The position numbers were made by a program, and so were the translations under genes. The notes under the pieces were generated by a model. That model did no database searches. It was not told where the DNA came from and worked only from the letters and a program-made list of their open reading frames with translations. Shown here one piece after another: positions 10,625 to 61,884 of a stretch of 64,000 nt of DNA. Numbering within the stretch: the first letter of the stretch is position 1; each line of letters begins with the position of its first letter. Source of the stretch: an uncultured Eubacteriales bacterium (lineage in GTDB: Bacteria > Acidobacteriota > Aminicenantia > Aminicenantales > Aminicenantaceae); assembly GCA_964505785.1 (NCBI GenBank), contig CAZDJZ010000003.1, forward strand, positions 168,934-232,933. The letters run 5' to 3'.

Positions 10625-10649
10625 GCCTGAGTTATTCTCAATGCATCTG

Positions 10650-10682
10650 AGGCAAAGCAGCTTGAGATCCTTTGCCTTTTTT
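10650..10682 (+). terminator. Intrinsic terminator-like hairpin between convergent manC and fba
   Basis: AGGCAAAG...CTTTGCCT stem followed by a T-run. Confidence 0.6.
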
Positions 10683-11982
10683 AATCTTCGTAATCGCCTT
10701 TTTCGGATTCCTGCTGCATAGAGAAAAGGGATTGGGCCTTTTCCCGGATTTTTTCATCGGTCCAGTCTTCTTTTATTTCAATTTTTTTCGTGACCGGGCC
10801 CGGATCATAAGAGCCGGCTTTTAGAATTTCCTCCAGCGCTATGGCCGCTGAATCCTTGGAACTAAAAACATTGATCAACATATTGTAAACAAAATCTTCC
10901 ACTCCTTGGATCATGCGCTCACGTATTTCAGCCGGCTGGGCATGCAGCTTGTTTTCAAAGGGAAGATTCAGTTTTTTATAACTCCCTCCCTTCAACCCTT
11001 TGTCCCGGGCATAAGCCGCCATTTCCTCCCACAGTTCATCCGTTACACCATGACCTTCCAATTTGATAAAATCTCCATTTTTATCCAGCCGTGCATTCCC
11101 ATAGTCATTCACTTCCACACCCCAGGAGATCATTTGCAAGGCAGTGGCTACATTGGCTTTGGTTGTATAGGTGGTTTCGGCAATTTCCCGTAACCGGTCG
11201 GAACTGTTTCCCGAGGTTCCATGCTGAGCCCCGGCGATGTTGTATTTTTTCAATGCCTTGTGAATTTCAGCAGTCAAATCAACCTGAATGCCTTGGTCAC
11301 TTTCCTGGATGCCGTGGGACGTTCCGTTATTCAGCGCAATCCAGTTCGGGAAAATTTCATGGGCATTCAATCCTTGAATGAGGAATAACGCCTCCTCAAC
11401 AGTGGATAAGCCTTCCGCCCCTTTAATTTCTCCCACCTCTGTTTCCAGCCCAGCCCAATCCGGAACATACCTGTTAAGCTCCAAATTAGCCAGCAGGTTT
11501 TCATCGTCAGGAAGATGAGATGCATCGATGGCAATGGAGGTAATACCTGCATCGAAAATTGAAGGGATCTCCACCTTCGCTGGCTCAACATCCGCTTTCT
11601 TTTTTATTGTATAATGATCAGCATGAACAGCGACCGGGACAGTGACACCCAATTCATTACAGACGGCATCAACCTGACGGGCGATGTTCCAGTAATTAAC
11701 CGCACAGTAAGCTCCCATCCCGCCTTCGGATTTGGCAATCTCAATAATCAGTGCCGAGTTGGCCCTCTGAGCGGCCCGCAGAGCGCCCCGGATAACGAAG
11801 TGATTCCGGCCGTTGGCGGCAATAGAAATTGATTTTTCTTTTTTCCGCATGGCCCTGTCGATGAACTTGCCGCTCACTATCAGCGCGTAAGAATTGGGAA
11901 AAAGCCGGGTAATATTGGGCGGCCTTCCTACCTTTAGCGCTTTTTGAAAATCTTTTGAATTTTGATTTATATCAGACATCAT
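10681..11982 (-). CDS. fba: Class II fructose-bisphosphate aldolase (long divergent type)
   Basis: HADH, IDASH, ETEVGEI, GTSHG, QHGTSG, KANVAT; AGGAGG RBS. Confidence 0.85.
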   Translation of the reverse strand: MMSDINQNSKDFQKALKVGRPPNITRLFPNSYALIVSGKFIDRAMRKKEKSISIAANGRNHFVIRGALRAAQRANSALIIEIAKSEGGMGAYCAVNYWNIARQVDAVCNELGVTVPVAVHADHYTIKKKADVEPAKVEIPSIFDAGITSIAIDASHLPDDENLLANLELNRYVPDWAGLETEVGEIKGAEGLSTVEEALFLIQGLNAHEIFPNWIALNNGTSHGIQESDQGIQVDLTAEIHKALKKYNIAGAQHGTSGNSSDRLREIAETTYTTKANVATALQMISWGVEVNDYGNARLDKNGDFIKLEGHGVTDELWEEMAAYARDKGLKGGSYKKLNLPFENKLHAQPAEIRERMIQGVEDFVYNMLINVFSSKDSAAIALEEILKAGSYDPGPVTKKIEIKEDWTDEKIREKAQSLFSMQQESEKGDYED

Positions 11983-12098
11983 GACCTCCTTGTGATGAGA
12001 TAATATTAATATTTTTGTATCTTAAAATAAAACCCATTTCTTTTATTCTAAACAAAACCGATTTAATGTAAAGCACTCTCTTTACCAAACAAATCAAA

Positions 12099-12188
12099 CT
12101 GAACAGACTTAGATGGACTTAGAAAGACTTAGATGGACTGAAAGACCGATTGGAACGCATCGAACGCAATGAACACAAGCCCAGCGGA
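12099..12188 (+). repeat. 9/10-bp satellite module (S), copy 1
   Basis: CTGAACA GACTTAGATG GACTTAGAAA GACTTAGATG GACTGAAA GACC...AACGCATCG AACGCAATG AAC; homologous copies at 23132-23230 and 49371-49450. Confidence 0.8.
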
Positions 12189-12195
12189 ACAGTCT

Positions 12196-12234
12196 AAGAT
12201 CCTCACGGCCTGCAGGCGCAGGCCTCAGGATGAC
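12196..12234 (+). repeat. REP-like arm (R module)
   Basis: AAGATCCTCACGGCCTGCAGGCGCAGGCCTCAGGATGAC; similar to 19820-19884 and to 45083-45148 (reverse strand). Confidence 0.7.
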
Positions 12235-12283
12235 ATTGATTCAATCAAGGTCGTCACTTCACTACGACGAGCTGCAAGCCGGA

Positions 12284-12446
12284 AGATGCGGTGAGATTCG
12301 GCCTGCCCGGGGGATGAGAAAATTGCGATTAAAATAAAAATTTAAAAATGAAAAAATTTCCCACGGATCTTTTTCTAAAAACCATGTTTGTCGCTGATAA
12401 AAAAGGGATTGTAAAAACATCGCAATTTTTTTATGAATAATCCAGG
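12284..12446 (-). mobile_element. Degenerate copy of the 193-bp MITE (one terminus retained)
   Basis: Reverse complement aligns colinearly with about 53323-53486; terminus CCTGGATTATTCAT at 12433-12446. Confidence 0.8.
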
Positions 12447-12464
12447 CTAGATTTGAGTAAATAC

Positions 12465-14234
12465 TTATTTCTTTATTAACCGGAGGCCCAGTTCTTCCAG
12501 CTGGCGATCTTCTACCTGAGCCGGAGCATCGGTCATTAAAGAAAGGGAACTGGTGGTCTTGGGAAAAGGGATCACCTGGCGGATAGAGGTTTCGCCGGTC
12601 AGCAGCATAATGATTCGATCAAAACCAAAGGCGATGCCCCCGTGCGGAGGTGTTCCGAAGGTCAGCGCTTTGAGAAAAAATCCAAATTTTTCTTCTGCCT
12701 GCTCCTCGCTCAACCCTAAGACCTGAAATATGCGCTGCTGCATCTCACGGTTATGAATTCGTATAGATCCGCCTCCGATTTCAATTCCGTTGAGCACCAT
12801 ATCATAAGCACGTGCTCTGACTTTGAATGGATCCTTATCCAGCAGCGCTTTGTCTTCTTCATGGACGGATGTAAAGGGATGGTGCATGGACACCACACGG
12901 CCTTCTTCCGTATTCCATTCGAATAAAGGAAAATCAGTTATCCACACAAACCGGTATTCATCAACCGGCAGCCTGGTTTCTTTTCCTAAAAACAAGCGGA
13001 TATGCCCGAGAACCTTAGCGGCGGCTTCTTCAGGCCCTGCCGACAATAAAATGATGTTTCCCTCTGCGGCCCTGCATCCGTTCCACAAGACCTCAAACTC
13101 ATTATCTTCAAGTTTTAGTGAAGATTTGTAGTTCCCATCTGCTCTTTTTATCCAAATGACGCCTTTCCCGCCCGCTTCCCGGGCCAAATCATTTAATTTG
13201 TCCAGCCGGCTGCGTGAAAATTCTCCCGCATCGCCTAACACCATCGCCTTGACCCGTCCGCCTTTATCCATCACGGCTTGAAGAAGATTTGATTTCACCC
13301 CCGCGGCTGACTCCGTGATATCAATGATCTCGCCGGGAATTCTCAAATCCGGTTTGTCCGTCCCGTAACGGGCCATACTCTCGACATAGGTCAGCCGGGG
13401 AAAAGGCCGCTTCACCTCAACTCCAATTAAGGAAAAAAGAGCGGCCATCATTCTTTCGGAGACATCAAATACATCATCCTGGTCAATAAAGCTCATTTCC
13501 ATATCGATTTGAGTAAATTCCGGCTGCCTTTCGGCCCTTAGATCCTCATCCCGGAAGCATTTGGCAATTTGGAAATAACGGTCATATCCTGAAATCATGA
13601 GAATCTGCTTAAATATTTGGGGGGATTGGGGAAGCGCAAAAAAACGGCCTTTGTAAATGCGGCTTGGAACAAGGTAATCCCGAGCTCCTTCTGGGGTGGA
13701 GCGGGTGAGCAGTGGTGTTTCAATTTCATAAAAACCTTCTTGATCCAAAAAACGCCTGACCGTCTGAGCAGCCTGATGGCGTACCCGTATATTCCTTTGC
13801 ATGGAAGGCCGCCTCAAATCCAAATAACGATATTCCAACCTCATTTCATCATTTGCCTGCGGCGGATCCTCAATCATAAAAGGCAGGTTTTCGCTGGAAC
13901 TAAATATAATGATATCCTCCGCATTAACTTCAATTTCTCCGGTGGCCATATCCGGATTACACAGTTTTTCTTCCCGCGGATTAACCCGGCCTTTGATTCC
14001 GATGACAAATTCCATTTTTATTTTCTTGGCCCTTTGTAAAAGGGAAGGATTGTCAGAAGAAATCACGACTTGAACAATTCCCTGCCTGTCTCTTAAATCA
14101 ATAAAAACAAGATGGCCCATGTCCCGGATTTTTTGAACCCAGCCGCAAAGCACAACCTCTTTTCCCGCATCTTCTTTCCGTAAATCCCCAGCATAGCGGT
14201 CTCTTTTCCAGATTGAATTATTTCTGTTGTTCAT
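12465..14234 (-). CDS. aspS: Aspartyl-tRNA synthetase
   Basis: FIDLRD, RYLDLRR, STPEGARDYLVP, FRDED, GGGSIRIH, PPHGGIAFGFDR. Confidence 0.97.
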   Translation of the reverse strand: MNNRNNSIWKRDRYAGDLRKEDAGKEVVLCGWVQKIRDMGHLVFIDLRDRQGIVQVVISSDNPSLLQRAKKIKMEFVIGIKGRVNPREEKLCNPDMATGEIEVNAEDIIIFSSSENLPFMIEDPPQANDEMRLEYRYLDLRRPSMQRNIRVRHQAAQTVRRFLDQEGFYEIETPLLTRSTPEGARDYLVPSRIYKGRFFALPQSPQIFKQILMISGYDRYFQIAKCFRDEDLRAERQPEFTQIDMEMSFIDQDDVFDVSERMMAALFSLIGVEVKRPFPRLTYVESMARYGTDKPDLRIPGEIIDITESAAGVKSNLLQAVMDKGGRVKAMVLGDAGEFSRSRLDKLNDLAREAGGKGVIWIKRADGNYKSSLKLEDNEFEVLWNGCRAAEGNIILLSAGPEEAAAKVLGHIRLFLGKETRLPVDEYRFVWITDFPLFEWNTEEGRVVSMHHPFTSVHEEDKALLDKDPFKVRARAYDMVLNGIEIGGGSIRIHNREMQQRIFQVLGLSEEQAEEKFGFFLKALTFGTPPHGGIAFGFDRIIMLLTGETSIRQVIPFPKTTSSLSLMTDAPAQVEDRQLEELGLRLIKK

Positions 14235-14267
14235 AGAAAGATCCTTTTCCCGGATGGATTTCCCCGT

Positions 14268-15518
14268 TCAGCGAAGCTGTTCCAGCAGCTCAGATTCCGT
14301 GGCTTCCCGCTGCTCCCCTGAACGCATATTTTTCAACTGATAAACCTTTTTACTCAATTCTTCCTCGCCGATAATAACCGCCCAGGAAGCATCCAGTTTA
14401 TTGGCCCGGCTTAATTGTTTTCCCAAACTCCGTTCCTTGTATTCGATCAGGCATTCAATGTCGTTCCGGCGCAGCATCTCAGCCACTGTCATGGCTTTTT
14501 GTTTGGCTTGTTCATCGCGGAAAACGATATAAACAAAATCGGCGGGCGCCTCTTTCTCAGGCACTAAAGACAACAGCCGTTCCATCCCCATGGCGAAACC
14601 AATCCCGCATATATCAGGCCCTCCATAGGTTTTCATCAAATCATCATAACGCCCTCCGCCCAATACGGCATCTTGGGCCCCCATACGCGCGGAAACAATT
14701 TCAAAAGTTGATTTTGTGTAGTAATCCAATCCCCGGACTAAACGCGGGTCGGCGGTATAGTTCAGTCCATATATATTTAAATATTTCTGAAAACGTTCAA
14801 AATGCTCACGGCATTCCCGGCAAAAATAATCCGTAATTAAAGGGAACTCCCGGGATACATCCCGGCAGGATTTCTGTTTGCAATCAAATATCCGCAAAGG
14901 GTTGATTTCGACCTTTTTGCGGCAATCCGGACATAAATCCTTTTCCTTTGCTCTGGCCGCAGCTTTAAGGTCCGCAAAATAGCGGGGCCGGCAAGCGGAA
15001 CACCCTACAGAATTTACCAGAATTTCAAAGTCAGTCACTCCGACTTTTTTCAACATAAAATCGGCCATTTTGACTATTTCCGCATCAACGGCAGGGTCTT
15101 TCTCTCCAAACACTTCAATATCAGCCTGGTGAAATTGGCGGAACCGTCCTTTTTGCGGTTTGTCATAGCGGAACATAGGACCGATAAAATAAAACCGCAT
15201 CGGCTGCGGCTGCAGGTAGAGACGGTTTTGCATAATAGCGCGGACGACTGAAGGGGTATATTCCGGGCGCAGGGTTAAGGATCGCCCTCCCTTATCAGTA
15301 AATGTATACATCTCTTTGGTTACAATATCAGAGGTCATTCCGGTACCTTTTTCAAATAATTCCGTGGCTTCGAAGACCGGAGTTCTAATCTGGCGATATC
15401 CGTAATGTTCAAATATTTCTCCGCAGGCTTGCTCCACTCGCTGCCACGTTCGCGTCTCCGGAGGAAGGATATCTCGGGTCCCTTTAATGGAAGCAAGGGT
15501 GTGCTGGTTTTCGCTCAT
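14268..15518 (-). CDS. hisS: Histidyl-tRNA synthetase
   Basis: [36 protein letters not shown]. Confidence 0.97.
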
Positions 15519-16468
15519 TCTTCTGTAAATACTCCAATTTTCCTGTACTTTTGATAGCGAAGCTCTATTCTTTTTTCCGGAGACAATTTTTCCATATCTG
15601 CCAGAGTTTTTTGGATTTCCTTATCGACCGCAACGAATGTGGTTTCCCAATCAATATGGGCGCCTCCCGGCGGCTCCGGAATTATTTTGTCCGCAATCCC
15701 GAACTCGGCCAAATCTTTAGCCAGGAAACGAAGATTTTCCGCTGCCTGGGCAAGAGCTGTTTGATCCTTCCATAATATGGCCGCACATCCTTCAGGGGAA
15801 ATAACTGAATAAAATGAATTTTCCAGCATCAATAATCGATCACCAACCCCAACCGCCAGGGCGCCTCCGCTTCCGCCTTCTCCAATGACAACATTAAGGA
15901 CCGGGATTTTCAATTGCGATATTTCTTTCAAATTAAAAGCAATGGCCTCTGCCTGCCCCCGTTCTTCGCCTTCAATACCCGGATAAGCTCCAGGAGTATC
16001 GATCAATGTGATCACCGGGAAATTAAATTTTTGGGCCAGCTTCATGATCCGCAGAGCTTTCCTGTAGCCTTCCGGAGTCGGCTGTCCAAAATTCCTTGAT
16101 ATACGCTCGCGGGTTGTCCGGCCTTTTTGATGCCCGACTATGACAACACTCTGACCACGGTATTGTGCAAATCCTGCGATCAAAGCCGGATCATCTCCCG
16201 CCCTCCGGTCCCCATGAAATTCCATAAAATCCTGTGTCAGCCTCTTGATATAATCAAGAGTATAGGGCCGTTGGGGATGACGGGCGATTTGAACCCGGTG
16301 CAATGCGGTTAATTTCGGCTGTAATTTCTCCCATTCCGACTTTATCCGCTCTTTCAATGGATCGATCTTATCTTTTTGCGGAATATCCGACTCCATCAAC
16401 GCATCGATCTGCTTTTTATACTCTAGTATTTTTTTCTCTAATTGATAAAAATCTTTTTCAGCACTCAT
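15515..16468 (-). CDS. accA: Acetyl-CoA carboxylase carboxyltransferase alpha subunit
   Basis: [43 protein letters not shown]. Confidence 0.96.
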
Positions 16469-16656
16469 GTTTTGCCTGCCTGGATTTTTTAAGTGAACTG
16501 ATTTTGCCAGACCTTCAGGTCCGGTTTGTTTATTCTATAGATTTACGAAAATAAATTCAAGACAGTCCGAAAACCATTCACTGCTTCGAATGAACACTTT
16601 GAAGCAGAACATGTAGAGACTCAATCATTCATCTTTTTTTGGATTGCAGTTTTTAT

Positions 16657-17307
16657 TTAATCTAATTTGGCTACCAGCTTCTGCGTGGGAATTCGGACTT
16701 CCAGCAAGTCTCCATCTGAATTGGTTTGAAGCTCAATTACAGAAGAACTGATATCCATGAGCAGGCGGCAGGAATTTTCCTCATCCGCCTGTAAAAGAAA
16801 CGGCACTTCAACCTGAGGAATAATATAGGCGGAAAGTTGTTTTTCTGCTTCCAGAGAGCAGCGGTATTTTTTGGATATGACCATATATGCTGAAAAAACC
16901 GGATTGGGGAGTAAAAATGCATCCCTCCGTATATCAACAGAGACGGTTTGTTCCCGGCCGGAAATCTGAATCAGATTTTCAACGTGCCCATCGGAAACAG
17001 CACTTTCCACCTTCTGTTCCATCCCGCTGATAGCTCCTTCAAAAAAAAACCTTTGCGGGATGAAACTCTCGCTGAGTTGAATTTCCATCCGTTTTATTTG
17101 AATTGGAATAGGTTTGGTCATCCGCCCGGTTACGACAAGTTCATATCCCCGTTCGACCCGCCGCCATTCAAATTCCTCATATCCGACTTGCTCATCCATA
17201 ACGTATATCGAAAAGGTTCCCCGCTCAGCCTCAATGTCCGCTGCTGCGGAAGAAGCGAACAGAGCCAGGCAGCAGATGCTCGTAATAGTGCCGATTTTTT
17301 TCTTCAT
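16657..17307 (-). CDS. Hypothetical exported beta-rich protein
   Basis: Signal peptide MKKKIGTITSICCLALFASSAAA; GGAG RBS; alternating beta-strand pattern. Confidence 0.65.
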   Translation of the reverse strand: MKKKIGTITSICCLALFASSAAADIEAERGTFSIYVMDEQVGYEEFEWRRVERGYELVVTGRMTKPIPIQIKRMEIQLSESFIPQRFFFEGAISGMEQKVESAVSDGHVENLIQISGREQTVSVDIRRDAFLLPNPVFSAYMVISKKYRCSLEAEKQLSAYIIPQVEVPFLLQADEENSCRLLMDISSSVIELQTNSDGDLLEVRIPTQKLVAKLD

Positions 17308-17364
17308 TTTTACTCCCAGTCCGCCTTGCGTTAAAAAGCCGGGCAAATATTGAAAATCTGAGAA

Positions 17365-18759: not shown

Positions 18760-18894
18760 ATACGCAAAAACCGATCATTTTATTCAATTTTAATCTTTTT
18801 TTTTAAGCGCATTGTACTTTTTCATGAACCCATCATGAGTGTAACACAATATCAATGAAAATCTCTGCCCTTCCGAAGAGCGAAGCGAGGCCGG

Positions 18895-19020
18895 AATCGG
18901 AGAGGATGTCCTCGCTGGGGACAGATGCGCAGCTGCGGGATATGGCCCTTATCCATTGCCATATGGAAACGGTTTTTATATGAAAACGCCGGCATTTGAT
19001 CCGGCGAGGCAGGAGAAGAA
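18895..19020 (+). repeat. 126-bp multi-hairpin module (H), copy 1
   Basis: Ungapped match to 56347-56472, 16 mismatches by manual count. Confidence 0.9.
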
Positions 19021-19025
19021 ACAGG

Positions 19026-19782: not shown

Positions 19783-19910
19783 CCTGAACGATTAGTTCGA
19801 AAATGACCCGTTAGTCAGGGTCATCCTGAGACATGCGAAGCAGAGCAAGGTCCTCATGGTCTGCTCTGCTGGCCCCAGGATGACATTTTGATTTATTTTC
19901 ATTGTTCAGG
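19783..19910. mobile_element. 128-bp element with imperfect terminal inverted repeats enclosing a REP-like palindrome
   Basis: CCTGAACGAT ... ATTGTTCAGG ends; GTCATCCTG...CAGGATGAC inside; homologous to 45083-45183 (reverse strand). Confidence 0.65.
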
Positions 19911-19928
19911 GTGTTTTATGCACATATT

Positions 19929-19982
19929 TTATTCATAAAGAAATTGTGATGTTTTTTCAATCTCGGCCCGTGAATAAGCCAG
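19929..19982 (+). mobile_element. Internally deleted mini-MITE
   Basis: Left end (TTATTCATAAAGAAATTGTGAT) joined at CAAT to the right end (CAATCTCGGCCCGTGAATAAGCCAG) of the 53323-53515 element. Confidence 0.7.
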
Positions 19983-21606: not shown

Positions 21607-23088
21607 TTACCGGATCTCCAATTCCTTGAGGCGTTCGGCGCAGCTTTTTAATGGTTTTGGGAAGGCGAGCCGGGCTCCCTTCTCAGCAAGAATAATAAAT
21701 TTATCCAGGTCCAGGCCGGATGTCTTTCCGGTCAGGGCAATTCGCAGAGGGTGATATAAATGCTTGCCTTTACACCCGGTCTCTTGCTGCACGCTTTTGG
21801 CGATCTCCATGAACTTTTTTAAATCCACTGGAGTGTGGGGAAGACGCTGCTTAAATGCGGTTACAACTTTCCGTCCGCATTCTGTGTTCAGTTCTTCTTT
21901 GTCCTCCGGAGAGATGTCTTCAGAAGAATAGTCAAATAATAACCGGAATTTCTCTGTCAAATCTGAAAGAGTATCCACCCGCTCGGATAAGATCTCGACC
22001 GCCTCTTCCAGCCAAGTCCAATGGCCCTGGTGCAGTTCTCCCGGAAGAATACCAGCTTCTTGTAAAAACGGTACCGTTTTTTGAGCTTTTTCTATAGGAG
22101 AAAGTGATTTGATATGCTGCCGGTTTATCCAAAATAATTTTTGATAGTCAAAAATCGCTGCCGACCGGCTGACCCGGTCCAGGCTGAAGGCCCGGATCAG
22201 TTCATCACGGGATAAAAGCTCCTTTCCCCCGGAAGGCGCCCATCCTAATAAGGCTAAATAATTAAACAAGGCGGAGGCAAGCACACCCTGTCTCCGGAAT
22301 TGTCCTACAGAGGCGGCCCCATGCCTTTTACTCAACCGGGTGTTGTCCTCTCCCATGACCATGGAAAGATGGGCATACTGAGGAGACGGAATCCCCAGGG
22401 CTTCAAACAGCAAAAGCTGCCGGACGGTGTTAATGAGATGGTCTTCACCCCGGATAACATGGGTGATCTGCATTAAGGCATCATCGATGACAACAGCAAA
22501 ATTATACGCGGGATGCCCGTTGGAGCGGACCAGAACAAAATCACCGATCAAATTCAAATCAAAGGAAAGAGAATCTCTCACAAGATCATGAAAACTGAAT
22601 TGTTTTTGGCGCGCAGTCTTCAGCCTTACTACAGCCGGTTCTCCTTCTCGAACCCTGCGGTCTGCTTTATCCGCGGGAATATTCCGGCATTTTCGGCTGT
22701 AGACAGGTGTTCGCCCGGCTTTGCGGGCGTGGTCTTTTTCCTGTTCCAACTCTTCCTGAGAACAAAAGCAGTAATAAGCCCGTCCATTCTCCAGCAATTT
22801 ATGCGTATGGGCCCGGTATAACTCCATCCGCTCGGATTGACGGTACGGGCCGAAATCGCCGCCGGTATCCGGTCCTTCATCCCAATCCAAACCCAGCCAG
22901 CTCAAGTCATTTTTCAGAGCTTCTTCATATTCCAATGAAGAACGTTCAATATCCGTATCCTCAACTCTTAAAATAAAAACACCTTCTTCCCTGCGGGCAA
23001 AAAGCCAATTAAAAAGGGCCGTCCTGGCATTGCCGATATGAAGGAATCCAGTGGGACTCGGCGCAAATCTGACTCTCACTTTATTCAT
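21607..23088 (-). CDS. gltX: Glutamyl-tRNA synthetase
   Basis: RFAPSPTGFLHIGN, HVIRGEDH, LSKR; start placed at MNKVRV. Confidence 0.96.
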   Translation of the reverse strand: MNKVRVRFAPSPTGFLHIGNARTALFNWLFARREEGVFILRVEDTDIERSSLEYEEALKNDLSWLGLDWDEGPDTGGDFGPYRQSERMELYRAHTHKLLENGRAYYCFCSQEELEQEKDHARKAGRTPVYSRKCRNIPADKADRRVREGEPAVVRLKTARQKQFSFHDLVRDSLSFDLNLIGDFVLVRSNGHPAYNFAVVIDDALMQITHVIRGEDHLINTVRQLLLFEALGIPSPQYAHLSMVMGEDNTRLSKRHGAASVGQFRRQGVLASALFNYLALLGWAPSGGKELLSRDELIRAFSLDRVSRSAAIFDYQKLFWINRQHIKSLSPIEKAQKTVPFLQEAGILPGELHQGHWTWLEEAVEILSERVDTLSDLTEKFRLLFDYSSEDISPEDKEELNTECGRKVVTAFKQRLPHTPVDLKKFMEIAKSVQQETGCKGKHLYHPLRIALTGKTSGLDLDKFIILAEKGARLAFPKPLKSCAERLKELEIR

Positions 23089-23131
23089 AGTTTCTACAGT
23101 GTAAACTATTTCCCAAAAAAACCCAAGCCCG

Positions 23132-23230
23132 TCCGCTGTGCCCGCGTTCATCGCGTGCTTTTAGTCCATCTAGGTCTGTCTAAATCTATCTAAGTCTTTT
23201 CGGTCTATTCCGTCCATTCGGTCTGTTCAG
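23132..23230 (-). repeat. 9/10-bp satellite module (S), copy 2
   Basis: Reverse complement CTGAACAGACCGAATGGACGGAATAGACCGAAAAGACTTAGATAGATTTAGACAGACCTAGATGGACT...ACGCGATGAACGCGGGCACAGCGGA. Confidence 0.8.
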
Positions 23231-23244
23231 CCCTTTTAGTTTAA

Positions 23245-23401
23245 CCTGAAACTCCAGGCCGATGAAAGGCTCCCAGTGAACTGCTGCAATGGAAACGTTT
23301 CTTATTTGACGAAGCTGACATTGGATCAGGCGAAGCAGACTGGAATCCTTCGCTTCGCTCAGGATGCCCCAGGCAGGTCATTTATGAACTAATATTTCGG
23401 G
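23245..23401 (+). repeat. Composite element: partial H + R arm + terminus
   Basis: 23290-23338 matches the 3' part of H (38/49); ATCCTTCGCTTCGCTCAGGATG; GTCATTTATGAACTAATATTTCGGG end. Confidence 0.7.
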
Positions 23402-24589: not shown

Positions 24590-24591
24590 TC

Positions 24592-44637: not shown

Positions 44638-44765
44638 ATAAGCCGGACGCGTTATTTTCACGGCATGCGGGTCCAGCTGAAGCGGCTTTAAAGATTCAGC
44701 CTTCCGAGGGCCGAGATTGAGGGATCCCGGCGAAGCCGGGCGCTAAGCATGTTTGATCCAGAGAG

Positions 44766-44957
44766 CTAGAGGACTTTATTTACTTTCCCGCTGCGGATGC
44801 ACTGAACACATACCCATGCTTTCCGCGGACCGGTATCCGTTTCAATTTTAATCCGCTGCAGATTAGGATTCCATTTTTTCTTGGATGCTTTATGGCTATG
44901 ACTCACACTATGTCCGAACATCGGACCTTTTCCGCATTTCTCACAAACTTTAGGCAT
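44766..44957 (-). CDS. rpmB: 50S ribosomal protein L28
   Basis: CEKCGK, VSHSH, WNPNLQ, CVQCIRS. Confidence 0.93.
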   Translation of the reverse strand: MPKVCEKCGKGPMFGHSVSHSHKASKKKWNPNLQRIKIETDTGPRKAWVCVQCIRSGKVNKVL

Positions 44958-45082
44958 TTCAAACTCTCCGCTCAGTCACTTTTGAAAAAACTTTATACCA
45001 TAAATCCATATAAATTCCAACCCGGACAAAAATCCTTCCTTCGGGATGTCAATCCATTAAGACATCTGTCCTTTATTCAGAA

Positions 45083-45183
45083 CATCCTGAGGCCCGCAGG
45101 GCAGGCCATGAGGACCTTGTTCCGCCGCTTCGAAGGCCTCATGATGACTCTGGCGGGTCATTTTCAAACGAATAAGCCATGGT
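45083..45183 (-). repeat. REP-like palindrome plus terminus
   Basis: Reverse complement TTATTCGTTTGAAAATGACCCG...GTCATCATGAG...AAGGTCCTCATGGCCTG...CTCAGGATG matches 19790-19884. Confidence 0.75.
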
Positions 45184-49328: not shown

Positions 49329-49630
49329 CCTGAATCATCCATATACAGAGAGCCCTGTATACATTATACTCGCGTTCATCGCGTTCTTAGCATTCTTTTT
49401 AAGTCAGCTTAGTCCATCTATGTTTATTTAGGTCTTATTGGTCTGTTCGGTCCTTTAATATGGGACTGCATTCCCTTATCCGGTTTTGGATAATTTTTGA
49501 TATTTGATTTAGAAAGATAACTTTTCACTTTCACCTTTTCATTCCTGCGAAGCAGAAGGGAATCTTTCAGGTGTTTATGTGCCCTCAGGACGGCCTTTTC
49601 GGACCGTTTTTTTATAAATGAGCCAAGCTG
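49329..49630. repeat. Degenerate composite element (terminus + S copy 3 + R-like arm)
   Basis: CCTGAATCATCCAT directly after the stop codon; S at 49371-49450; GCGAAGCAG...GAATC...CTCAGGACGGC as at 56455-56501. Confidence 0.55.
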
Positions 49631-49661
49631 ATAAGGAAGGTGAATTTTTTTTTTATTTTTC

Positions 49662-52375: not shown

Positions 52376-53314
52376 TTACTGCTTTCTGAATGAATACGGA
52401 TGACCCAGCTTCATTAATTCACCGTTTTCCATCACCAGGATGGAACCGTATTCAGGATAATGATCTAAAATTTTTTCCGGTTCTCCGGATATAAAAAGAG
52501 CTGTAGACAGGCCGTCACAGATAACCGTACTCGGACCAATAACCGTTACGCTTTGCTTTCCACGGGCCGGGCGTCCCGTGGAAGGATTAAAGATATGATG
52601 ATAACGCTTTCCTCCGGAAGAAAAGTATCTTTGATAATCGCCGGTTGTTGCGGCTCCGGCATTAGAGATACTGAGGATACCTAAAAACCCTTTTTTCCGG
52701 GGATGCGTGACTCCGATTTGCCAATTTCTTTGTTCCGGGTTTCGGCCCCAGCAGTAAAGATCTCCTCCCGCATTAATAAATCCGGCTGGTATATTCATTC
52801 TTTTACATTCACGGTACGCAAGATCGATCCCCCATCCTTTAGCGATGCCGCCCCAGTCCAGCGTCATTTTTTCCGGGATAATAAGGGTTTCGTTCTTGAT
52901 TTCAATCTTATCCATTCCGGTATGTTCCAGGCAACGCTGGATTCTATCTTGAGAAGGAATTACATATTTTCCGCTGCGAAAACCCCACAATTCAGATAAG
53001 GGGGCGACGGTTATATCAAAGCCGCCGCCCGAAAGCTGATGGATTTGATAAGCGGTTCGGAATAATTCTAAGACTTCGGGTGACTGGTAATCAACAGATC
53101 CGGGAGAAAATCTGTCTTCGATTTTAGAAAAGATATTATGAATAGCCTGTTCCGCTTTTCTAAACACAGAATCCGAAGCTTGAACTTGGACTTGACAGAC
53201 TGTATCGAAAAATAGAAAAGTGGTTTTATGCCATTCTTTTTTCCGTCCGCATCCGAAAAAAAGAATGACGAAAGATAGTCCGAAAGAGAAAAATATTTTT
53301 TTTTTATGATCCAT
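52376..53314 (-). CDS. apbE: FAD:protein FMN transferase ApbE (lipoprotein)
   Basis: Lipobox FFGC, FDITV, DWGGIAKG, GGD, TTGDYQRYF, YHHI.NP.TG. Confidence 0.9.
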   Translation of the reverse strand: MDHKKKIFFSFGLSFVILFFGCGRKKEWHKTTFLFFDTVCQVQVQASDSVFRKAEQAIHNIFSKIEDRFSPGSVDYQSPEVLELFRTAYQIHQLSGGGFDITVAPLSELWGFRSGKYVIPSQDRIQRCLEHTGMDKIEIKNETLIIPEKMTLDWGGIAKGWGIDLAYRECKRMNIPAGFINAGGDLYCWGRNPEQRNWQIGVTHPRKKGFLGILSISNAGAATTGDYQRYFSSGGKRYHHIFNPSTGRPARGKQSVTVIGPSTVICDGLSTALFISGEPEKILDHYPEYGSILVMENGELMKLGHPYSFRKQ

Positions 53315-53322
53315 TTACTTAA

Positions 53323-53515
53323 CCTGAATTATTCATAAAAAAATTGTGATTTTTTTACAATTTCTTTTTTATCAGCGATTAACATGATTTTTATTGAAAG
53401 TTCAAATGGAAATTTTTTCATTTGCACATTTATATTATAATCGCAATTTTTCACCCCTTCGGGCGGGTTGAATCTCACCGTATCTGCAGCAATCTCGACC
53501 CATGAATAATTCAGG
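53323..53515. mobile_element. 193-bp MITE with perfect 14-bp TIRs
   Basis: CCTGAATTATTCAT ... ATGAATAATTCAGG, TTAA on both flanks, non-coding, related copies elsewhere in the window. Confidence 0.88.
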
Positions 53516-53846
53516 TTAATACTGATTCCCCATTTTGAAAAATTCCCTTTAAAAAGTCAATCCGCCCGGCATTAGACTCTTTTCCAGCCTAATTGATTTA
53601 TTGACAAGGGTGATGTTTTTTAATATTTTGAAATCATTCTAAATGCCATACATCCTTCATTATGAGAAGAATTCACCTATGAACGATGAAAAAAACCACC
53701 TTAACCTTAAGCGGTTTTATAGAATCAGCATTCCGGGAAAAAGATGGAGGGAATCCGTACTGCTGCTGAAAATAAAGTGCAATGAATGGTCCCGCTTTAG
53801 TATCTGTTAACATCAAGATGAATATTTTTAGCATAAGGAGATTGAT

Positions 53847-56329: not shown

Positions 56330-56346
56330 AAATTGGCTAACGGGAT

Positions 56347-56535
56347 AATCGGAGCGGATGTCCTCCCTGGGGACAGACGTGTGGTGGCGGGATGTGGACT
56401 TTATCCATTGTCATGTGGAAACGGGTTTTATATGAATACGCCGGCATTTGATCCGGCGAGGCAGGACAAGAACCTTATGGCGCTGCGATTCTCAGGACGG
56501 CAGCGGCGCTGTCGTTTTCGAATGAATAATACTGG
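56347..56535 (+). repeat. H module copy 2 + R arm + terminus
   Basis: H at 56347-56472; CTCAGGACGGC; GTCGTTTTCGAATGAATAATACTGG. Confidence 0.85.
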
Positions 56536-56591
56536 TTAAGTAAATGAGGACCGGCAAGACGGGATCCTTTGATTTTCAGAAGGAGGCGAAA

Positions 56592-58091
56592 ATGAAAAAA
56601 AATGGAATTTTATCAGGAATGATTTTAATTTTATTAACGGGAAGCTTGGTTTTTTGCGGGGGTCCGGCGGAGCGGATCGATTCCCGGGAAGCGGCCCCGG
56701 CGGCTGAAAAGGAGCCTGAATGGGCCTTTCCTGTTTTAGAACGGCCGCCCTATGAAGACATAAAAATCTATGATTTTCCCCAGGCTGTACAGTGCTGGAC
56801 ATTCCGCAAATTCACTTTCATGGAAACACTGGATAAAGCGAAAGAAGTGGGCATTTCCTATATCGAAGCTTATCCCGGACAAGCCTTCAGCCCGGAACAT
56901 GCGGACATTAAATTTGATCACAATCTGGAAGAACCTTTTCGGAAAATGGTCAAAATGAAACTTAAAGAGAATAATCTTGAGCTCATCAATTACGGAGTGG
57001 TCGGCTTTGAGAATGAAGAAGAAGGCATGCAGACTGTATTTAGATTCGCAAAAGAAATGGGGATTCGCACCATTATTACAGAACCGGCGTTTGATGATTA
57101 CGCGCTGTTGGAGAAAATGGTAAAAGAGACAGGCATTCAAGTTGCAATCCACAATCATCCGGCGCCTAGCAAATATGCCCGGCCTGAAACCGTTATGGAA
57201 CATATTGACGGATTGGATCCCCGAATCGGTGTTTGCGCGGATACCGGGCACTGGATGCGCACCGGGGTGAAACCGCTGGAAGCCCTTCGGATGCTTCAGG
57301 GCAGGATTCTCGATGTCCATCTGAAGGATCTCAATCGCTTCGGCACGAAAGAGGCCGTGGATGTTCCCTTTGGACAGGGCGAAGCTGATATCCGTGATAT
57401 TCTGGCGGAATTGACGTTTCAAGATTACGACGGCGTTTTGACCATTGAGTACGAGGACCCGGCCGCTGCAGATAATCCGGACCCGGCGATCCGGGAAGGG
57501 ATAAATTATTTGGAAAGCGTCACATATTATTCCGGGTATCAGCGTCTTTTGGGAAAGAGCCGGGGCCGCTACCACAAACATGGGTGGAATCATTATGGGC
57601 CCGGGTATTTTCTGCTGGATCATGAGCGCGGCATTTTAAAATCTCAAGGCGGGATGGGATTGTTTTGGTTCAGCCGTAAAAAGTTCCAGGATTTCATTCT
57701 GACCGTGGATTTTATGAGCGCAAAGGAGAATACCAATTCCGGAATTTTTCTCCGGATTCCGGAAGTTCCGGTCAGTGATGATTATATCTATCATTCTTTT
57801 GAAATTCAGATTTATAATGCCGGGGAGGGCAAGCATAAGACCGGAGCTGTCTATGATGTGACGGCCCCAGAAAGGGATGCATTTAAACCAGCGGGAGAAT
57901 GGAACCATCTCAAAATGGTTTTTGAGAAAGATAACCTGAAAATTGAGATAAACGGGAATATGATCCTGGATTGGAATGCCGCCCCGGGAGGGAAAGTTCG
58001 GGATTTCGCCGGGGAGGGATATATCGGGCTGCAGAATCATGACAGCCGCTCCCCCGTATATTTTCGAAATGTTTATATACGGGAACTGTGA
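56592..58091 (+). CDS. Xylose-isomerase-like TIM barrel fused to DUF1080 (3-keto-disaccharide hydrolase-like) domain, probable lipoprotein
   Basis: AIHNH, DTGHW, HLKD, IEYE; then NSGIF, EIQI, GEWNH, GYIGLQNH, FRNVYIREL; AGGAGG RBS. Confidence 0.85.
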   Translation: MKKNGILSGMILILLTGSLVFCGGPAERIDSREAAPAAEKEPEWAFPVLERPPYEDIKIYDFPQAVQCWTFRKFTFMETLDKAKEVGISYIEAYPGQAFSPEHADIKFDHNLEEPFRKMVKMKLKENNLELINYGVVGFENEEEGMQTVFRFAKEMGIRTIITEPAFDDYALLEKMVKETGIQVAIHNHPAPSKYARPETVMEHIDGLDPRIGVCADTGHWMRTGVKPLEALRMLQGRILDVHLKDLNRFGTKEAVDVPFGQGEADIRDILAELTFQDYDGVLTIEYEDPAAADNPDPAIREGINYLESVTYYSGYQRLLGKSRGRYHKHGWNHYGPGYFLLDHERGILKSQGGMGLFWFSRKKFQDFILTVDFMSAKENTNSGIFLRIPEVPVSDDYIYHSFEIQIYNAGEGKHKTGAVYDVTAPERDAFKPAGEWNHLKMVFEKDNLKIEINGNMILDWNAAPGGKVRDFAGEGYIGLQNHDSRSPVYFRNVYIREL

Positions 58092-58197
58092 TTCGTTGAA
58101 AAGGCAAAAGTGAAATGCAGAGGCGGCGCATATTTCCGAGTAAGATGAGTAAACGGTTTTAATGCTTTTAAGATTTAAGAAAAATTAGGAGAAAAAT

Positions 58198-59871
58198 ATG
58201 AGATCGGATAGGGAAATCACCAAGGATTATCAGATAAAACCCATTGAGGAGATATCCCAAAAACTGGGAATCAGCAATGAACACCTGGAGAAATACGGCC
58301 CTTTCAAAGCCAAGCTGACAACGGAGGCCGTCCGGGAGTTCAGAGAGAAAAAGGGCAAACTTGTTATGGTAACCGGGATGTCACCGACGCCTGCCGGAGA
58401 AGGGAAAACCTTGACCAGCATTGGTCTGATTGATGCCTTCAACCGGATGCAGAAAAAAGCGGCGGCGGCCCTGCGGGAGCCGTCCCTGGGGCCCGTGTTC
58501 GGGCTTAAAGGAGGCGCCACCGGCGGCGGCCGGGCTCAGGTTATGCCGAGCGATGAGATCAATCTTCATTTCACAGGAGATATCCATGCGGTCACCTCCG
58601 CTCACAACCTATTGGCCGCCATGGTGGATAACCGGCTTCATTTTGACGGCCCTAGTGGTTTACTAGATTCCCGAAGAATAACATGGAAGAGGGTTTTGGA
58701 TATGGATGACCGCGTGCTGCGGGAGATAGTGGTGGGAATAGGGGGGCCGCTGAGGGGCCTTGCCCGGGAAACCGGGATGGATATTACGGCGGCTTCTGAA
58801 GTCATGGCGATTCTTTGCCTGGCGGAAGACTTGAAAGATCTAAAAAAACGCCTGGGCGATGTATTAATCGGTTATTCTCCCGAAGGCCAACCAGTTTTTG
58901 CCCGCCAGGTGAAAGCGGATGGAGCCATGGCGGCGCTGCTGAAAGAAGCCATGAAACCCAACCTTGTCCAGACGTTGGAAGGCAATCCGGTTTTTGTCCA
59001 CGGCGGGCCCTTTGCCAATATCGCTCACGGCACCAATTCGGTTATTGCCACAAGGGCGGCATTGAACCGGGCGGATATCACAGTGACAGAAACCGGCTTC
59101 GGTTCTGATTTGGGCGCGGAAAAATTTTTTGATATTGTGGTGCGAACCGGCTTTATTCCTCCGCCGGATGCCTGTGTTTTGGTGGCGACGGTGAGGGCAT
59201 TAAAATACCATGGGGGCGTCGCGCGCAAAGATCTGGAAAAAGAAAATGTCGAGGCGGTCAAAAAGGGTTTTCCTAATCTGCAGAAACACATGGAAAACCT
59301 TCGTCAATTCGGAGTGCCGTTTGTAGTGGCCGTCAATCACTTTTCTTCCGATTCACCGGAGGAATTGGAGCAAGTGCTGGAGCTCTGCCGGAGAGACAAA
59401 ACCCGGGCCGCGGTAAGCCGCGTGTGGGCTGAAGGGGGAGCCGGAGGGCAGGAGCTGGCGGAACAGGTTCTTGCCGCAATGGATCAGGATGAGCATCACT
59501 TTGATTTTATCTACTCTACGGAACAAACACTGCTGGAAAAAATCGAGACGGTTGCGGCTAAGATATACGGAGCGGCCGCGGTGGCCATGGAAGGAAAAAT
59601 CCGCCGCCGCATCATGAAGCTGGAGGAGCAGGGTTTCGGAAACCTTCCAATCTGTGTGGCCAAAACACCGGCCTCACTTTCCGACGACGCCGAGCTCCTT
59701 GGCCGGCCTCAGGACTTCACCTTAATTGTAACGGATGTTTCTCTGAGCTCTGGAGCCGGATTTGTGGTGGTTTACTGTGGTGATATTATGACGATGCCCG
59801 GCCTTCCCAAAAACCCGGCAGCTGAACGGGTCGATATCACTCCTGAAGGTGAAATCTCCGGACTTTCTTGA
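58198..59871 (+). CDS. fhs: Formate--tetrahydrofolate ligase
   Basis: PTPAGEGKT, LREPSLGP, INLHFTGD, HGGPFANIAHG, IMTMPGLP. Confidence 0.97.
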   Translation: MRSDREITKDYQIKPIEEISQKLGISNEHLEKYGPFKAKLTTEAVREFREKKGKLVMVTGMSPTPAGEGKTLTSIGLIDAFNRMQKKAAAALREPSLGPVFGLKGGATGGGRAQVMPSDEINLHFTGDIHAVTSAHNLLAAMVDNRLHFDGPSGLLDSRRITWKRVLDMDDRVLREIVVGIGGPLRGLARETGMDITAASEVMAILCLAEDLKDLKKRLGDVLIGYSPEGQPVFARQVKADGAMAALLKEAMKPNLVQTLEGNPVFVHGGPFANIAHGTNSVIATRAALNRADITVTETGFGSDLGAEKFFDIVVRTGFIPPPDACVLVATVRALKYHGGVARKDLEKENVEAVKKGFPNLQKHMENLRQFGVPFVVAVNHFSSDSPEELEQVLELCRRDKTRAAVSRVWAEGGAGGQELAEQVLAAMDQDEHHFDFIYSTEQTLLEKIETVAAKIYGAAAVAMEGKIRRRIMKLEEQGFGNLPICVAKTPASLSDDAELLGRPQDFTLIVTDVSLSSGAGFVVVYCGDIMTMPGLPKNPAAERVDITPEGEISGLS

Positions 59872-59990
59872 AGTCCGTTTCCATGCCTTGCGTTGACACT
59901 GTTTCCAGAGTCTTGATATACTTCCCATTTCATTGGGACGGACCAGGAAGGAAATGAGAACAGGCCGAGAGTTTCTTCTGGAGAGAAATA

Positions 59991-61532
59991 ATGAATAATA
60001 AAATCAAAATCACTCTGATTTCACCATATGATATAAACGTGGCCAGCGGGTTAAGGTTCCTTTCTTCTTATCTCAAGCAGCACGGCTATGCGGTTGATAT
60101 TATCTTTATGTCTCAAAAAGAAAGTTCAGGTCAGTTTGACGGGCTGTTCAATAAAAATTTTTACAGTGACAAAGCGATTCAGGAACTGGTTGATCATTGC
60201 CGGGACTCTGATCTGGTCGGATTTTCTTTGATGACCAATTATTTTCTGAAAGTCAAAGAACTGACTGAAAAAGTTAAAGCGAAACTGGATGTGCCGGTGA
60301 TTTGGGGAGGGATCCATGCCACGGTCCGCCCGGAGGAATGCATTCAATACGCGGATATGTTATGTATCGGTGAGGGAGAGGAAGCGGTATTGGAACTGGC
60401 CGCTAGCTTGAAAAGCGGTGATTTTCATTCCATACCCAACTTGTGGATAAAGGACGGAAAACGGATCATCAAAAACCCTCCGCGCCCTCTGGAAAGAAAT
60501 CTGGATAAGTATCCGTTTCAGGATTACGATGTCTCCACGCATTATGTGCTTAAAAATGATGCCATAGTTCAAATGAACGATGCCATGCTTAAAGAAATCA
60601 TGCCCAAAGATTACGAAGGGGATAAGCCCCGGGTCATGTATCATCTCATAACGGCCAGGAATTGTCCGCACAACTGCACCTACTGCTGCAATAATGCTTT
60701 ACGCAAAGTGTATAATGAGGAAAAATATTTTGTTCGCAAGCGCAGCGTTGCAAATGTTATCGGGGAAATGGAATACATCCTGAAGCGGTATCCGTTTTTT
60801 TCTGTCATAAGCATATTTGACGATACTTTCTTTATCCGCAGCAAAGAAGATATCCGGGAGTTCAGCCGCCTGTATAAAGAGAAAATCAATTTACCGTTAA
60901 TGTGCAGCGTTTCTCCCCATACTCTGGATGAGGAAAAATTGCGTTATCTGGTAGACGCCGGCCTATACCGCACCAGCGTCGGCTTTCAATCCATGAGTCC
61001 GGATACCCTATTGGGCATTTATAAGCGTCCCACTCCTCAGAAAGTAATAGATAAAACCATCCGGACCCTGAAAAAATTCCGGAAAGAGATTCCCCGACCG
61101 GTATATCACTTCATTATTGATAACCCCTATGAAACCAATACATCCTTAAAAACCAGCATTGAGTTCATTCTCACTCTTCCCGCCCGTTCACGGATATACT
61201 TATATCCCCTGGTTTTTTTCCCCGGGACAGAAATTTATGAGCGGGGCAAAAAAGACGGATTCATTCAGGATGAAATCCGAGACATATATCTTAAATCCTG
61301 GACGATCGATGATATACAGAATCTGAACTTCCTCACCATTCTGTTTTATTTCGCGGTTTGGTCTAAATTCCACCCGGCTGTCATGAAACCGATGAACGGG
61401 ATAATCCGCTTCCTGATGAAGGGCCGGGTGGTTGCCGTGATGGACAATAGGGTTTCAGTGAAATTAATGGTTTTTCTGCTCAAAGGCTACATTTTCGGAA
61501 TCCAGACACTGGGGAGATTGAGAAAGCAGTGA
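59991..61532 (+). CDS. B12-binding radical SAM protein
   Basis: WGGIHAT, IGEGE, CPHNCTYC, DDTF. Confidence 0.9.
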   Translation: MNNKIKITLISPYDINVASGLRFLSSYLKQHGYAVDIIFMSQKESSGQFDGLFNKNFYSDKAIQELVDHCRDSDLVGFSLMTNYFLKVKELTEKVKAKLDVPVIWGGIHATVRPEECIQYADMLCIGEGEEAVLELAASLKSGDFHSIPNLWIKDGKRIIKNPPRPLERNLDKYPFQDYDVSTHYVLKNDAIVQMNDAMLKEIMPKDYEGDKPRVMYHLITARNCPHNCTYCCNNALRKVYNEEKYFVRKRSVANVIGEMEYILKRYPFFSVISIFDDTFFIRSKEDIREFSRLYKEKINLPLMCSVSPHTLDEEKLRYLVDAGLYRTSVGFQSMSPDTLLGIYKRPTPQKVIDKTIRTLKKFRKEIPRPVYHFIIDNPYETNTSLKTSIEFILTLPARSRIYLYPLVFFPGTEIYERGKKDGFIQDEIRDIYLKSWTIDDIQNLNFLTILFYFAVWSKFHPAVMKPMNGIIRFLMKGRVVAVMDNRVSVKLMVFLLKGYIFGIQTLGRLRKQ

Positions 61533-61543
61533 AGTCCGCTCAT

Positions 61544-61704
61544 GTTATTCCCGCGGCAAAGCGGCGTGAATCTCAGACGGTTCCGGATAAATAAGATATC
61601 TTTTTTCTCTTTACTCATCACTCTTTACTAAACGAAGCGGCCTGAGATCCTTCGTTTCGCTCAGGGTAACAGCGGAGCTGTCATTTTCGAACGAAGAATT
61701 CAGG
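61544..61704 (+). repeat. REPIN-like element: two R arms around a spacer, plus terminus
   Basis: GTTATTCC...GAATCTCAG / CTGAGATCCTTCGTTTCGCTCAGGGTAAC / GTCATTTTCGAACGAAGAATTCAGG. Confidence 0.7.
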
Positions 61705-61884
61705 TGTTTACATGGCTGGATAAAGTGTGATAAAAATATAAAGCCCGGCTATGAGCATAGCTCGCCAAAAAACAACAGAAATCATGTCTGAACGGCTGCA
61801 GTGGGTTTACCGCGCTGACTCATTGCATCGAGGGGGAAGTTTTAAGGAATAATCCGGGCAATATTTAAAGCGAAAGGAAAAAAT

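Follow-up and report, generated by a model that had tools for sequence, protein, structure and literature searches.

The window analyzed here, a 64,000-nucleotide stretch (contig C3, positions 168934-232933) of the genome of an uncultured member of the Aminicenantaceae, carries numerous short repeats between its genes. Probably these belong to three superimposed kinds rather than to one system: transposable elements of the miniature inverted-repeat type (MITEs) mobilized by an IS1380-family transposase, a hairpin unit designated R, and short-period satellites, including one designated S. The original prediction, made from the window alone, had instead envisaged a single modular family in which one terminus (T) mobilizes interchangeable cargo comprising palindromic arms (R), a 126-bp core (H), and a satellite (S). 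Our analysis reveals no new kind of system; the repertoire is rich, but as an instance of known mobile DNA it is fairly unremarkable, and it illustrates how mosaics are built from insertion sequence (IS) ends of the IS1380 type, hairpin repeats, and satellites. The source assembly (G000) is a metagenome-assembled genome (MAG) of 3.13 Mb in 50 contigs that is 89.8% complete, and comparisons of spread cover 41 genomes with G000 among them. For a conserved 723-amino-acid protein encoded in the window, the closest named relatives come from 'Candidatus Aminicenantes' MAGs, at 59-70% identity.

IS1380-type ends and target duplications

T is the terminal inverted repeat (TIR) of an IS1380-family IS (CCTGRATTATTCAT...), because its terminal bases match those of a full-length IS with an IS1380-family transposase. 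Ends that start with CC and target repeats of 4-5 bp are traits of this family. The IS in question, found in the related genome G033 (locus L010), is 1620 bp long and reads TTAA, CCTGGATTATTCATAAAAAAAGC ... TTTATGAATAATCCAGG, TTAA; its ends, CCTGGATTATTCATAAAAAAAGC and CCTGGATTATTCATAAACTGG, compare with CCTGAATTATTCATAAAAAAATTGC at the end of the MITE termed M1. The 444-amino-acid (aa) transposase of L010 scores 406 bits against the model NF033539 (cut-off 180) and 522 bits against PF13701. Thus, the proposal that T is an IS1380-type transposon end is borne out by an element with the same end, a TTAA duplication, and the corresponding enzyme. ISs with ends similar to those of L010 and T are also seen in three further relatives (G007, G030, and G020), and PF13701 is matched in 21 of the 41 genomes. 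The relatives additionally contain a second IS1380-family clade, typified by locus L018 (G008:C5, 345-2062), with perfect 18-nt ends (CCCAAATAATCGGATAAG) that are unrelated to T.

M1 is a 253-bp element with 184 related loci in G000, of which 33 are two-ended and 21 are ~250 bp long. An alignment of 30 copies shows the ends CCTGAATTATTCAT...GTGAATAATTCAGG, with the 4-bp sequence YTAR on both sides. When YTAR is not required, 132 pairs of T lie less than 450 bp apart in the genome; YTAR is present on both sides of 54 of them and is identical on the two sides in 39 of the 54, whereas 2000 permutations averaged 16.9 and never exceeded 29. The length distribution of the T pairs has one peak at 250 bp, with 29 pairs, and another at 390 bp, with 7. 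Hence, the T-bounded elements possess the attributes of IS1380-type MITEs, except for a transposase gene in the same assembly: they are short, non-coding, and dispersed in many copies; they show a direct duplication of fixed length (the 4-bp YTAR); and their ends match, through L010, those of a full-length IS with an IS1380-family transposase. They are non-autonomous, as predicted, in that no T pair in G000 encloses a transposase gene. The seven T-pair intervals of 0.8-4.4 kb in this genome hold ordinary genes only. The window itself is likewise devoid of the transposase, REP-associated tyrosine transposase (RAYT, where REP stands for repetitive extragenic palindrome), and nuclease genes that the original prediction had found missing there: PF13701, PF01609, PF01797, and PF01541 are all unmatched in it, and the matches in the genome fall only on other contigs.

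IS5-family elements likewise target YTAR and duplicate 4 bp, and it was the YTAR duplication that first suggested a derivation of the MITEs from an IS5-family element, a candidate that we dropped once the IS1380 partner was found. The YTAR flanks and the 4-bp duplication speak for such an origin; against it, the CC-starting ends match a full IS with an IS1380-family transposase, and the sole PF01609 match in G000 is a GC-rich gene at the end of contig C11 whose ends are unrelated to T. We therefore regard an IS5 origin as highly improbable. The C11 gene itself (C11:90437-92052) encodes a DDE_Tnp_1 protein in a 431-aa open reading frame (ORF) that is interrupted by the contig end; its composition sets it apart from the rest of G000, so that the gene may have been acquired recently or may be a contaminant from binning.

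Empty sites and recent movement

The precise absence of an M1 copy from a closely related strain provides evidence of recent mobility in a natural population. A contig from a sediment metagenome (X6) joins window position 53316 to 53516, skipping 199 bp: the M1 copy is missing and one TTAA is left. The X6 contigs differ from the flanking genes of the window at 58 of 2032 bases (~97% identity). At 53323-53515, the site in X6 may have stayed unoccupied or may have been vacated by precise excision; in both cases, M1 has moved recently. The search for empty orthologous sites called for by the original prediction thus succeeded; this presence/absence polymorphism with a single target copy was encountered at one site only. 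The element at 56347-56535 is retained in X6 with a 21-bp deletion. In the two genomes of the same genus (G001 and G002), 11-17 bp take the place of the block 49329-49640, and the same is true of the block 23134-23401 at the matching site of G001; other gaps of the window differ in content in these genomes.

Repeat load of the genome and features of the window

A self-comparison of the genome shows that bases with at least three other copies make up 4.8% of G000 and are grouped in 739 islands; by crude ORF calls, repeats account for 119,542 of the 422,201 bases outside ORFs (~28%). The modules were counted at both the motif level and the BLAST level. The motif counts, with at most one mismatch and with a first-order Markov genome of equal size as the control, place T (CCTGAATTATTC) at 323 against 34, TTCGAAAATGAC at 104 against 34, R (GTCATCCTGAG) at 561 arms against 42, and the S units at 230 against 25 and 158 against 4. 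The counts for T, R, and S lie far above those of the simulated genome. A BLAST comparison of ten intergenic gaps of the window with all of G000 gave 1147 matches, 41-340 per gap, except for the gap at 10626, which gave two, one of them to itself. Ten repeat islands with a coverage of at least three are present in the window (12105-12458, 18877-19019, 19830-19982, 23134-23243, 23290-23394, 45127-45179, 49491-49531, 53294-53519, 56347-56528, and 61601-61695), and they fall within nine of the ten gaps that had been singled out as repeat bearing. Nine entries of that list therefore stand, and the tenth, at 10626, is marginal. A repeat scan of the window recovers the two H copies at 18895-19020 and 56347-56472 (126 nt, 87% identity), an inverted pair at 12284-12449 and 53320-53485 (166 nt), and several shorter pairs at the places given in the original prediction.

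With the limits of the modules set by the per-base BLAST depth, the gaps resolve into the following features, where M1, M2, and M2-H are MITE families, T2 and T3 are element ends, and L is a GC-rich leader:

10626-10682, forward strand: marginal T-like 12-mer (CCTGAGTTATTC, one mismatch), R-derived hairpin GGCAAAGCAGCTTGAGATCCTTTGCC, and a T-run, terminator-like in look; 2 blastn matches including itself
12097-12180, reverse strand: S block of 9-10-nt units plus leader L (CGCGTTCATCGCG); S1 motifs at 12097-12138
12190-12446, reverse strand: truncated 391-type MITE (M1 with an R insert); R arm 12190-12236, M1 positions 163-1 at 12284-12446, TIR 12435-12446, flank CTAG
18877-19019, forward strand: M2-H fragment (reference positions 204-62) with both ends gone; 88% identity over 143 nt
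19783-19910, reverse strand: small 128-bp M2 MITE; T2 at 19783-19807, small hairpin, R doublet 19820-19884, T3 at 19895-19910
19923-19982, forward strand: mini-M1 of ~60 bp; degenerate left end and M1 positions 7-42 fused to the M1 right end (...GTGAATAAGCCAG)
23134-23243, forward strand: S block; leader CGCGTTCATCGCG with GTCTRTCTA / GTCTRTTC units, up to 100 matches
23245-23401, forward strand: internally deleted M2-H; left end CCTGAAACTCC.. after TTAA, distal H, R arm 23358-23368, degenerate T2; 76% identity to M2-H positions 117-19
45083-45182, forward strand: 5'-truncated M2; R doublet remnant, hairpin, T2 (GTCATTTTCAAACGAATAAGCCATGG), then TTAA
49329-49626, forward strand: unique composite of ~298 bp with T-like ends; T at 49329-49340, leader, S at 49409-49455, TTTTGAT, AAGATAAC, TTTCAC, degenerate R, hairpin, T-like end
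53323-53515, forward strand: M1 MITE, 193-bp form without reference positions 166-216; TIRs CCTGAATTATTCAT / ATGAATAATTCAGG, TTAA at 53319-53322 and 53516-53519
56347-56535, forward strand: 3' part of M2-H; H core 56347-56464, R arm, hairpin, T2 at 56511-56535, then TTAA
61544-61580, forward strand: low-copy hairpin of the ATTCCCGCGG..CGTGAAT type; coverage 1-2
61590-61704, forward strand: CTCTTTACT-type satellite, one R arm, hairpin GACAGC..GCTGTC, T2 at 61680-61704

The mini-M1 at 19923-19982 adjoins the neighboring M2 element via a conserved GTGT..CACAT spacer.

The H core belongs to a longer MITE

H has 30 loci in G000, and its full copies are part of a longer element, M2-H, of ~305-330 bp. 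One end of M2-H (...GATCCTTCGCTTCGCTCAGGATGAC-CCTGGCG-AGTCATTTTCGAACTAATAAGCCAGG) consists of R, a small hairpin, and the T2 form of T; the other is T3 (CCCGGAACGATGAAAGTC...). As the full copies run from T3 to R, hairpin, and T2, the recurring order H-R-T describes one MITE and not three modules, and the conception of H as a free 126-bp module has to be abandoned. Two placements made under that conception also fall away: the sequence at 18870 that was taken for a left arm of R preceding H belongs to the H element, as its upstream part, and the supposed H-R-T copy near 49545 has no similarity to H, presenting a degenerate R and a T-like end instead. A fixed junction of a degenerate M1 left end, a ~10-bp spacer, and T3 recurs in at least five H copies and at 19895-19964 of the window, and GTGT follows T3 in 16 of 26 cases. 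Rfam has no family for H. In the sister species G001, high copy number is confined to the initial 43 nt of H, the GGATGTCCTCGCTGGGGACAG hairpin, which recurs at least 20 times at 88% identity on many contigs and acts as an independent repeat there.

R, a hairpin unit with inverted doublets

R comprises an invariant tag (TGTCATCCTGAGG), an inner hairpin whose sequence takes one of several forms, and AAGGATC. What had been described as distinct left and right arm types is an identical unit read in two orientations. Of its 561 arms, 140 form 70 convergent (inverted) doublets, 37 of which measure 110-129 bp. These doublets occur free, between T3 and T2 (M2 elements of ~128-190 bp, such as that at 19783-19910), and inside M1 (the 391-bp form). 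Ten T pairs measure 380-400 bp; CTAA stands on both sides in three, two of which contain R doublets, indicating that the composite moves as a whole.

REPs and their paired form, the REPINs, are likewise defined as intergenic hairpins in high copy number that carry a conserved tag at the 5' side and also form inverted doublets, and R answers to this description. It could accordingly be supposed that R is a REP/REPIN spread by a RAYT, a Y1 tyrosine transposase acting on single-stranded hairpins, and that the IS1380-type MITEs merely picked it up. The conserved tag followed by a variable hairpin, the REPIN-like length of the doublets, and two G000 genes on contigs C9 and C1 (237 and 240 aa, respectively) that encode a Y1_Tnp domain and, among the NCBIfam models, best match NF047646 for REP-associated tyrosine transposases are in line with this. 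Nevertheless, the scores of these genes (59 and 71 bits) are under the NCBIfam cut-off of 80, the arms of a doublet often differ in their inner hairpin, and neither gene in G000 is flanked by R: the C9 gene (37658-38371) has no flanking repeat, and the C1 gene has a different palindrome on its flanks. Hence, we consider a RAYT-driven spread of R rather unlikely. The palindrome that brackets the C1 gene (~94020-94930) is ~70 nt long (AATGGGGACAGACCCCATT...), is present as inverted copies, and is otherwise nearly absent from G000. The search for an R-flanked RAYT gene or a repeat-flanked GIY-YIG gene that the original prediction had recommended found neither in G000; the one GIY-YIG match in this genome, in a 619-aa frame on contig C28, lies away from the repeats, and a search of G000 for TnpB (PF07282) gave no match.

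S and related satellites

S is an array, variable in length, whose units read GTCTRTCTA or GTCTRTTC and which follows a GC-rich leader. A broader family of 84 related loci, to which the feature at 61590 belongs, displays a recurring order of S, TTTTGAT, AAGATAAC, CTCTTTACT, R, and a hairpin, i.e. the recurring ordered combination of palindromes and short motifs that marks bacterial interspersed mosaic elements (BIMEs); the order is also seen in the composite at 49329-49626. Among the 12 longest copies of the 61590 type, five end in a T2-like terminus and five run into more satellite.

Outside the window, contig C18 (9150-14000) has kilobase-long intergenic blocks made almost entirely of 7- and 9-nt tandem repeats, with GTCTATCTA, GTCTGTTCA, GGGTTACTT, GAGATTT, TTTTTGA, TTTTGCG, AATCGTG, and CCATTCA as units. 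The blocks also hold repeated GTCATTCCCGG hairpins of a second type and a recurring ~150-bp unit; T ends are absent from them.

Separate histories of the modules

Treating T, R, H, and S as a single non-autonomous family mobilized by T has several observations in its favor. At least three different interiors are bounded by T-type ends, namely the core of M1, M1 carrying an R doublet (391 bp), and, in elements with T2 and T3 ends, either R or H; the composite at 49329-49626 has T ends, contains S, other satellites, and R, and is absent from both same-genus genomes; and the order from S through TTTTGAT, AAGATAAC, CTCTTTACT, and R to the hairpin and T2 is a recurring one. To this extent, the notion of one terminus with different cargo stands. 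However, most islands with R or S lack T. Of the 739 islands, 188 hold T, 300 the main R (GTCATCCTGAG), 122 the second hairpin type (Rb, GTCATTCCCGGA), 85 S, 19 the H core, and 68 the M1 core; T is shared by only 65 of the 300 islands with the main R, 6 of the 122 with Rb, and 7 of the 85 with S, while S and the second hairpin type share 40 islands. Furthermore, R arms exceed the chance expectation by ~520 and T2 ends by ~70, fewer than half (5 of 12) of the longest 61590-type copies have a T2-like terminus, and G000 has no second copy of the left part of the composite at 49329. The spread among the 41 genomes is unequal too: M1 is found in 23 (20 of the 24 in the same family), the H-R-T element in four, and S in five. 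The differences in island sharing and in spread imply that the parts have separate histories, with T accounting for some of them only, and we judge the idea of one modular system to be distinctly unlikely.

A model for the mosaics and the points against it

We favor a scenario with three overlaid kinds of repeats, in which an IS1380-family DDE transposase would mobilize the MITEs in trans. Each insertion duplicates a 4-bp YTAR target, frequently one in which a stop codon supplies the TAA or TAG. The MITE families comprise M1 (253 bp), M1 with an R doublet (~391 bp), and M2, in which T2 and T3 surround an R doublet or H (~305-330 bp), and most copies in the window are truncated or internally deleted derivatives. 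R is a hairpin unit that exists singly, as ~120-bp inverted doublets, and inside MITEs, though mostly free, and S and the other short-period satellites adjoin R-type hairpins. The composites may have formed by the insertion of elements beside or into one another, with YTAR regenerated at the ends each time, after which they would be copied as units from their outermost ends and eventually decay by deletion. A precedent from the same family is provided by ISEcp1 and ISPme1, which, as described in part of PMC9330008, mobilize adjacent DNA via imperfect alternative ends.

Several observations weigh against this scenario. PF13701 has no match in a profile search of the G000 MAG, incomplete and divided among its contigs as it is, and transposase genes are absent from the interior of its T pairs. 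The similarity between M1 and the IS is confined to ~13-21 terminal bases. No IS partner was found for the T2 or T3 ends, which differ from the inverted repeats at five other IS1380 loci, and many T2/T3 elements lack a matching YTAR duplication. The transposase cannot explain most R and S copies, because they are not near T. Lastly, the apparently empty sites in G001 and G002 are coarse, because their genes are only 72-80% identical to those of the window. We infer that a trans-acting IS1380 enzyme is present in the species represented by G000.

Fold of M1 and possible functions

The structure of M1 was studied in 21 copies from 13 genomes; as the rows of the MAFFT alignment were shifted, the long-range stem was measured in each sequence separately and scored in 17 rows, the other four having no T-run anchor. 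Across the 13 genomes, the length (250-262 bp) and the ends of M1 are kept, and a YTAR flank is present in most of the 21 copies. The AT-rich left half diverges freely and is closed in 14 of the 17 rows by an inverted repeat of 6-10 bp that covaries, both sides changing between genera. The right half is 80-87% conserved and forms a nested hairpin in which 97.4% of cells are paired and seven of the 22 pairs show compensatory changes, values reached by none of 500 shuffles, whereas shifted controls are 22-44% paired. Two G-U pairs of the hairpin are invariant, and in nine cells a G-C or A-U pair has given way to G-U; all of these lie on a single strand, the one reading from the left end to the right end. 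Identity to the G000 reference reaches 94% among the M1 copies of G001, as against the 72-80% of its genes. Of 42 M1 copies, 23 have their AT-rich end at most 31 bp from the boundary of a crude ORF, as compared to four with the structured end so placed.

Because compensatory changes span at least ten genera, the G-U pairs are strand specific, and the conservation between species is above that of the genes, the right half of M1 might be a selected single-stranded fold, probably of RNA, that is carried as cargo and has spread among the Aminicenantes by the IS1380 transposase and interspecies transfer, with the fabric of R and satellites arising through some process other than TIR transposition or classical REP-RAYT activity. 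We advance this combination tentatively and think it improbable as a whole. A more general view, somewhat less improbable but still on the unlikely side, is that the repeats persist as RNA or regulatory parts (terminators, promoters, or RNA-stability hairpins), so that their conserved order reflects function and not transposition history. The covarying right-half hairpin in 21 copies of 13 genomes, the strand-specific G-U pairs, the inner inverted repeat that covaries across genera, and the position of the AT-rich end near ORF boundaries would fit such a function. On the other side of the ledger, promoter-like and terminator-like sites are no more common in M1 than in shuffles, there is no Rfam match to the repeats (in a search of Rfam 15, the window matches only tRNA-Gln, and the best match of M1 has E = 0.72), the copies are related by descent, which inflates the covariation counts, and the hairpins may serve transposition itself. 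An outward promoter at the left end of M1, picked out by eye with agreement at 8 of 12 positions, was set aside as it fell below the threshold of the scan tool. The elements are located at gene starts and stops, where they could alter expression.

Relationship to known mobile elements

The Correia elements or NEMIS (Neisseria miniature insertion sequences) and other bacterial MITEs are short, high-copy, TIR-bounded intergenic elements with hairpins and a fixed short duplication, situated near the starts or ends of genes. The elements described here share that layout while differing in transposon family and ends; moreover, several MITE families here share one end and are nested with other repeats. 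BIMEs and the REP/REPIN-RAYT systems of enterobacteria and pseudomonads combine a palindromic unit in both orientations with other short motifs in recurring orders. Such mosaics, along with ~120-bp inverted doublets, are found here too, but the sequence of R is unrelated, no RAYT gene is flanked by it, and true transposons with TIRs and target-site duplications as well as 7-10-nt satellites are included. The short tandemly repeated repetitive (STRR) sequences of heterocystous cyanobacteria are intergenic tandem arrays of heptanucleotides with many sequence variants. The 7-nt intergenic arrays of G000 resemble them, although both organism and sequences differ and the arrays here stand beside hairpins and MITE ends.

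The closest kin are the IS1380-family ISs (ISEcp1, ISPme1, and IS1380), given the CC-starting ends, the 4-bp duplication, and the IS of a relative with identical terminal bases; the capture of adjacent DNA via imperfect ends, going by part of PMC9330008, would explain the composites. The elements here differ from these ISs in being 60-390-bp non-coding derivatives with no transposase gene in the assembly. A comparable principle is embodied by the TIMEs, Tn3-derived inverted-repeat miniature elements that, according to part of PMC4133298, generate mosaic non-autonomous transposons: in both cases miniature elements with common ends bracket and move other DNA, though the family (Tn3) is a different one. 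In the literature, judged from titles and the openings of abstracts, no paper on IS1380-derived MITEs was found; the part of PMC4381525 consulted on Aminicenantes transposable repeats gives nothing on such repeats, and among the matches listed for nested or chimeric bacterial MITEs there was nothing apt.

Other observations in the window

Repeats of this kind break assemblies and cause false ORF extensions. An example of the latter is the ORF at 21607-23151 (reverse strand), whose listed start enters the S leader (CGCGTTCATCGCG); it is probably over-extended by the repeat, because its homology to G001 stops at about 23100. The 11-mer TTAAGTAAATG follows a MITE end at two gene starts (53312-53322 on the reverse strand and 56536-56546), which places both start codons 8 nt away from the terminal repeat. 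A GC-rich repeat at 44660-44757, absent from the list of the original prediction, has 8-10 copies in G000, and the X6 strain carries a 59-bp replacement within it (44671 to 44731). Close by, at 44770-44960 on the reverse strand, a small gene that by eye resembles the gene for ribosomal protein L28 is flanked by two repeat blocks.

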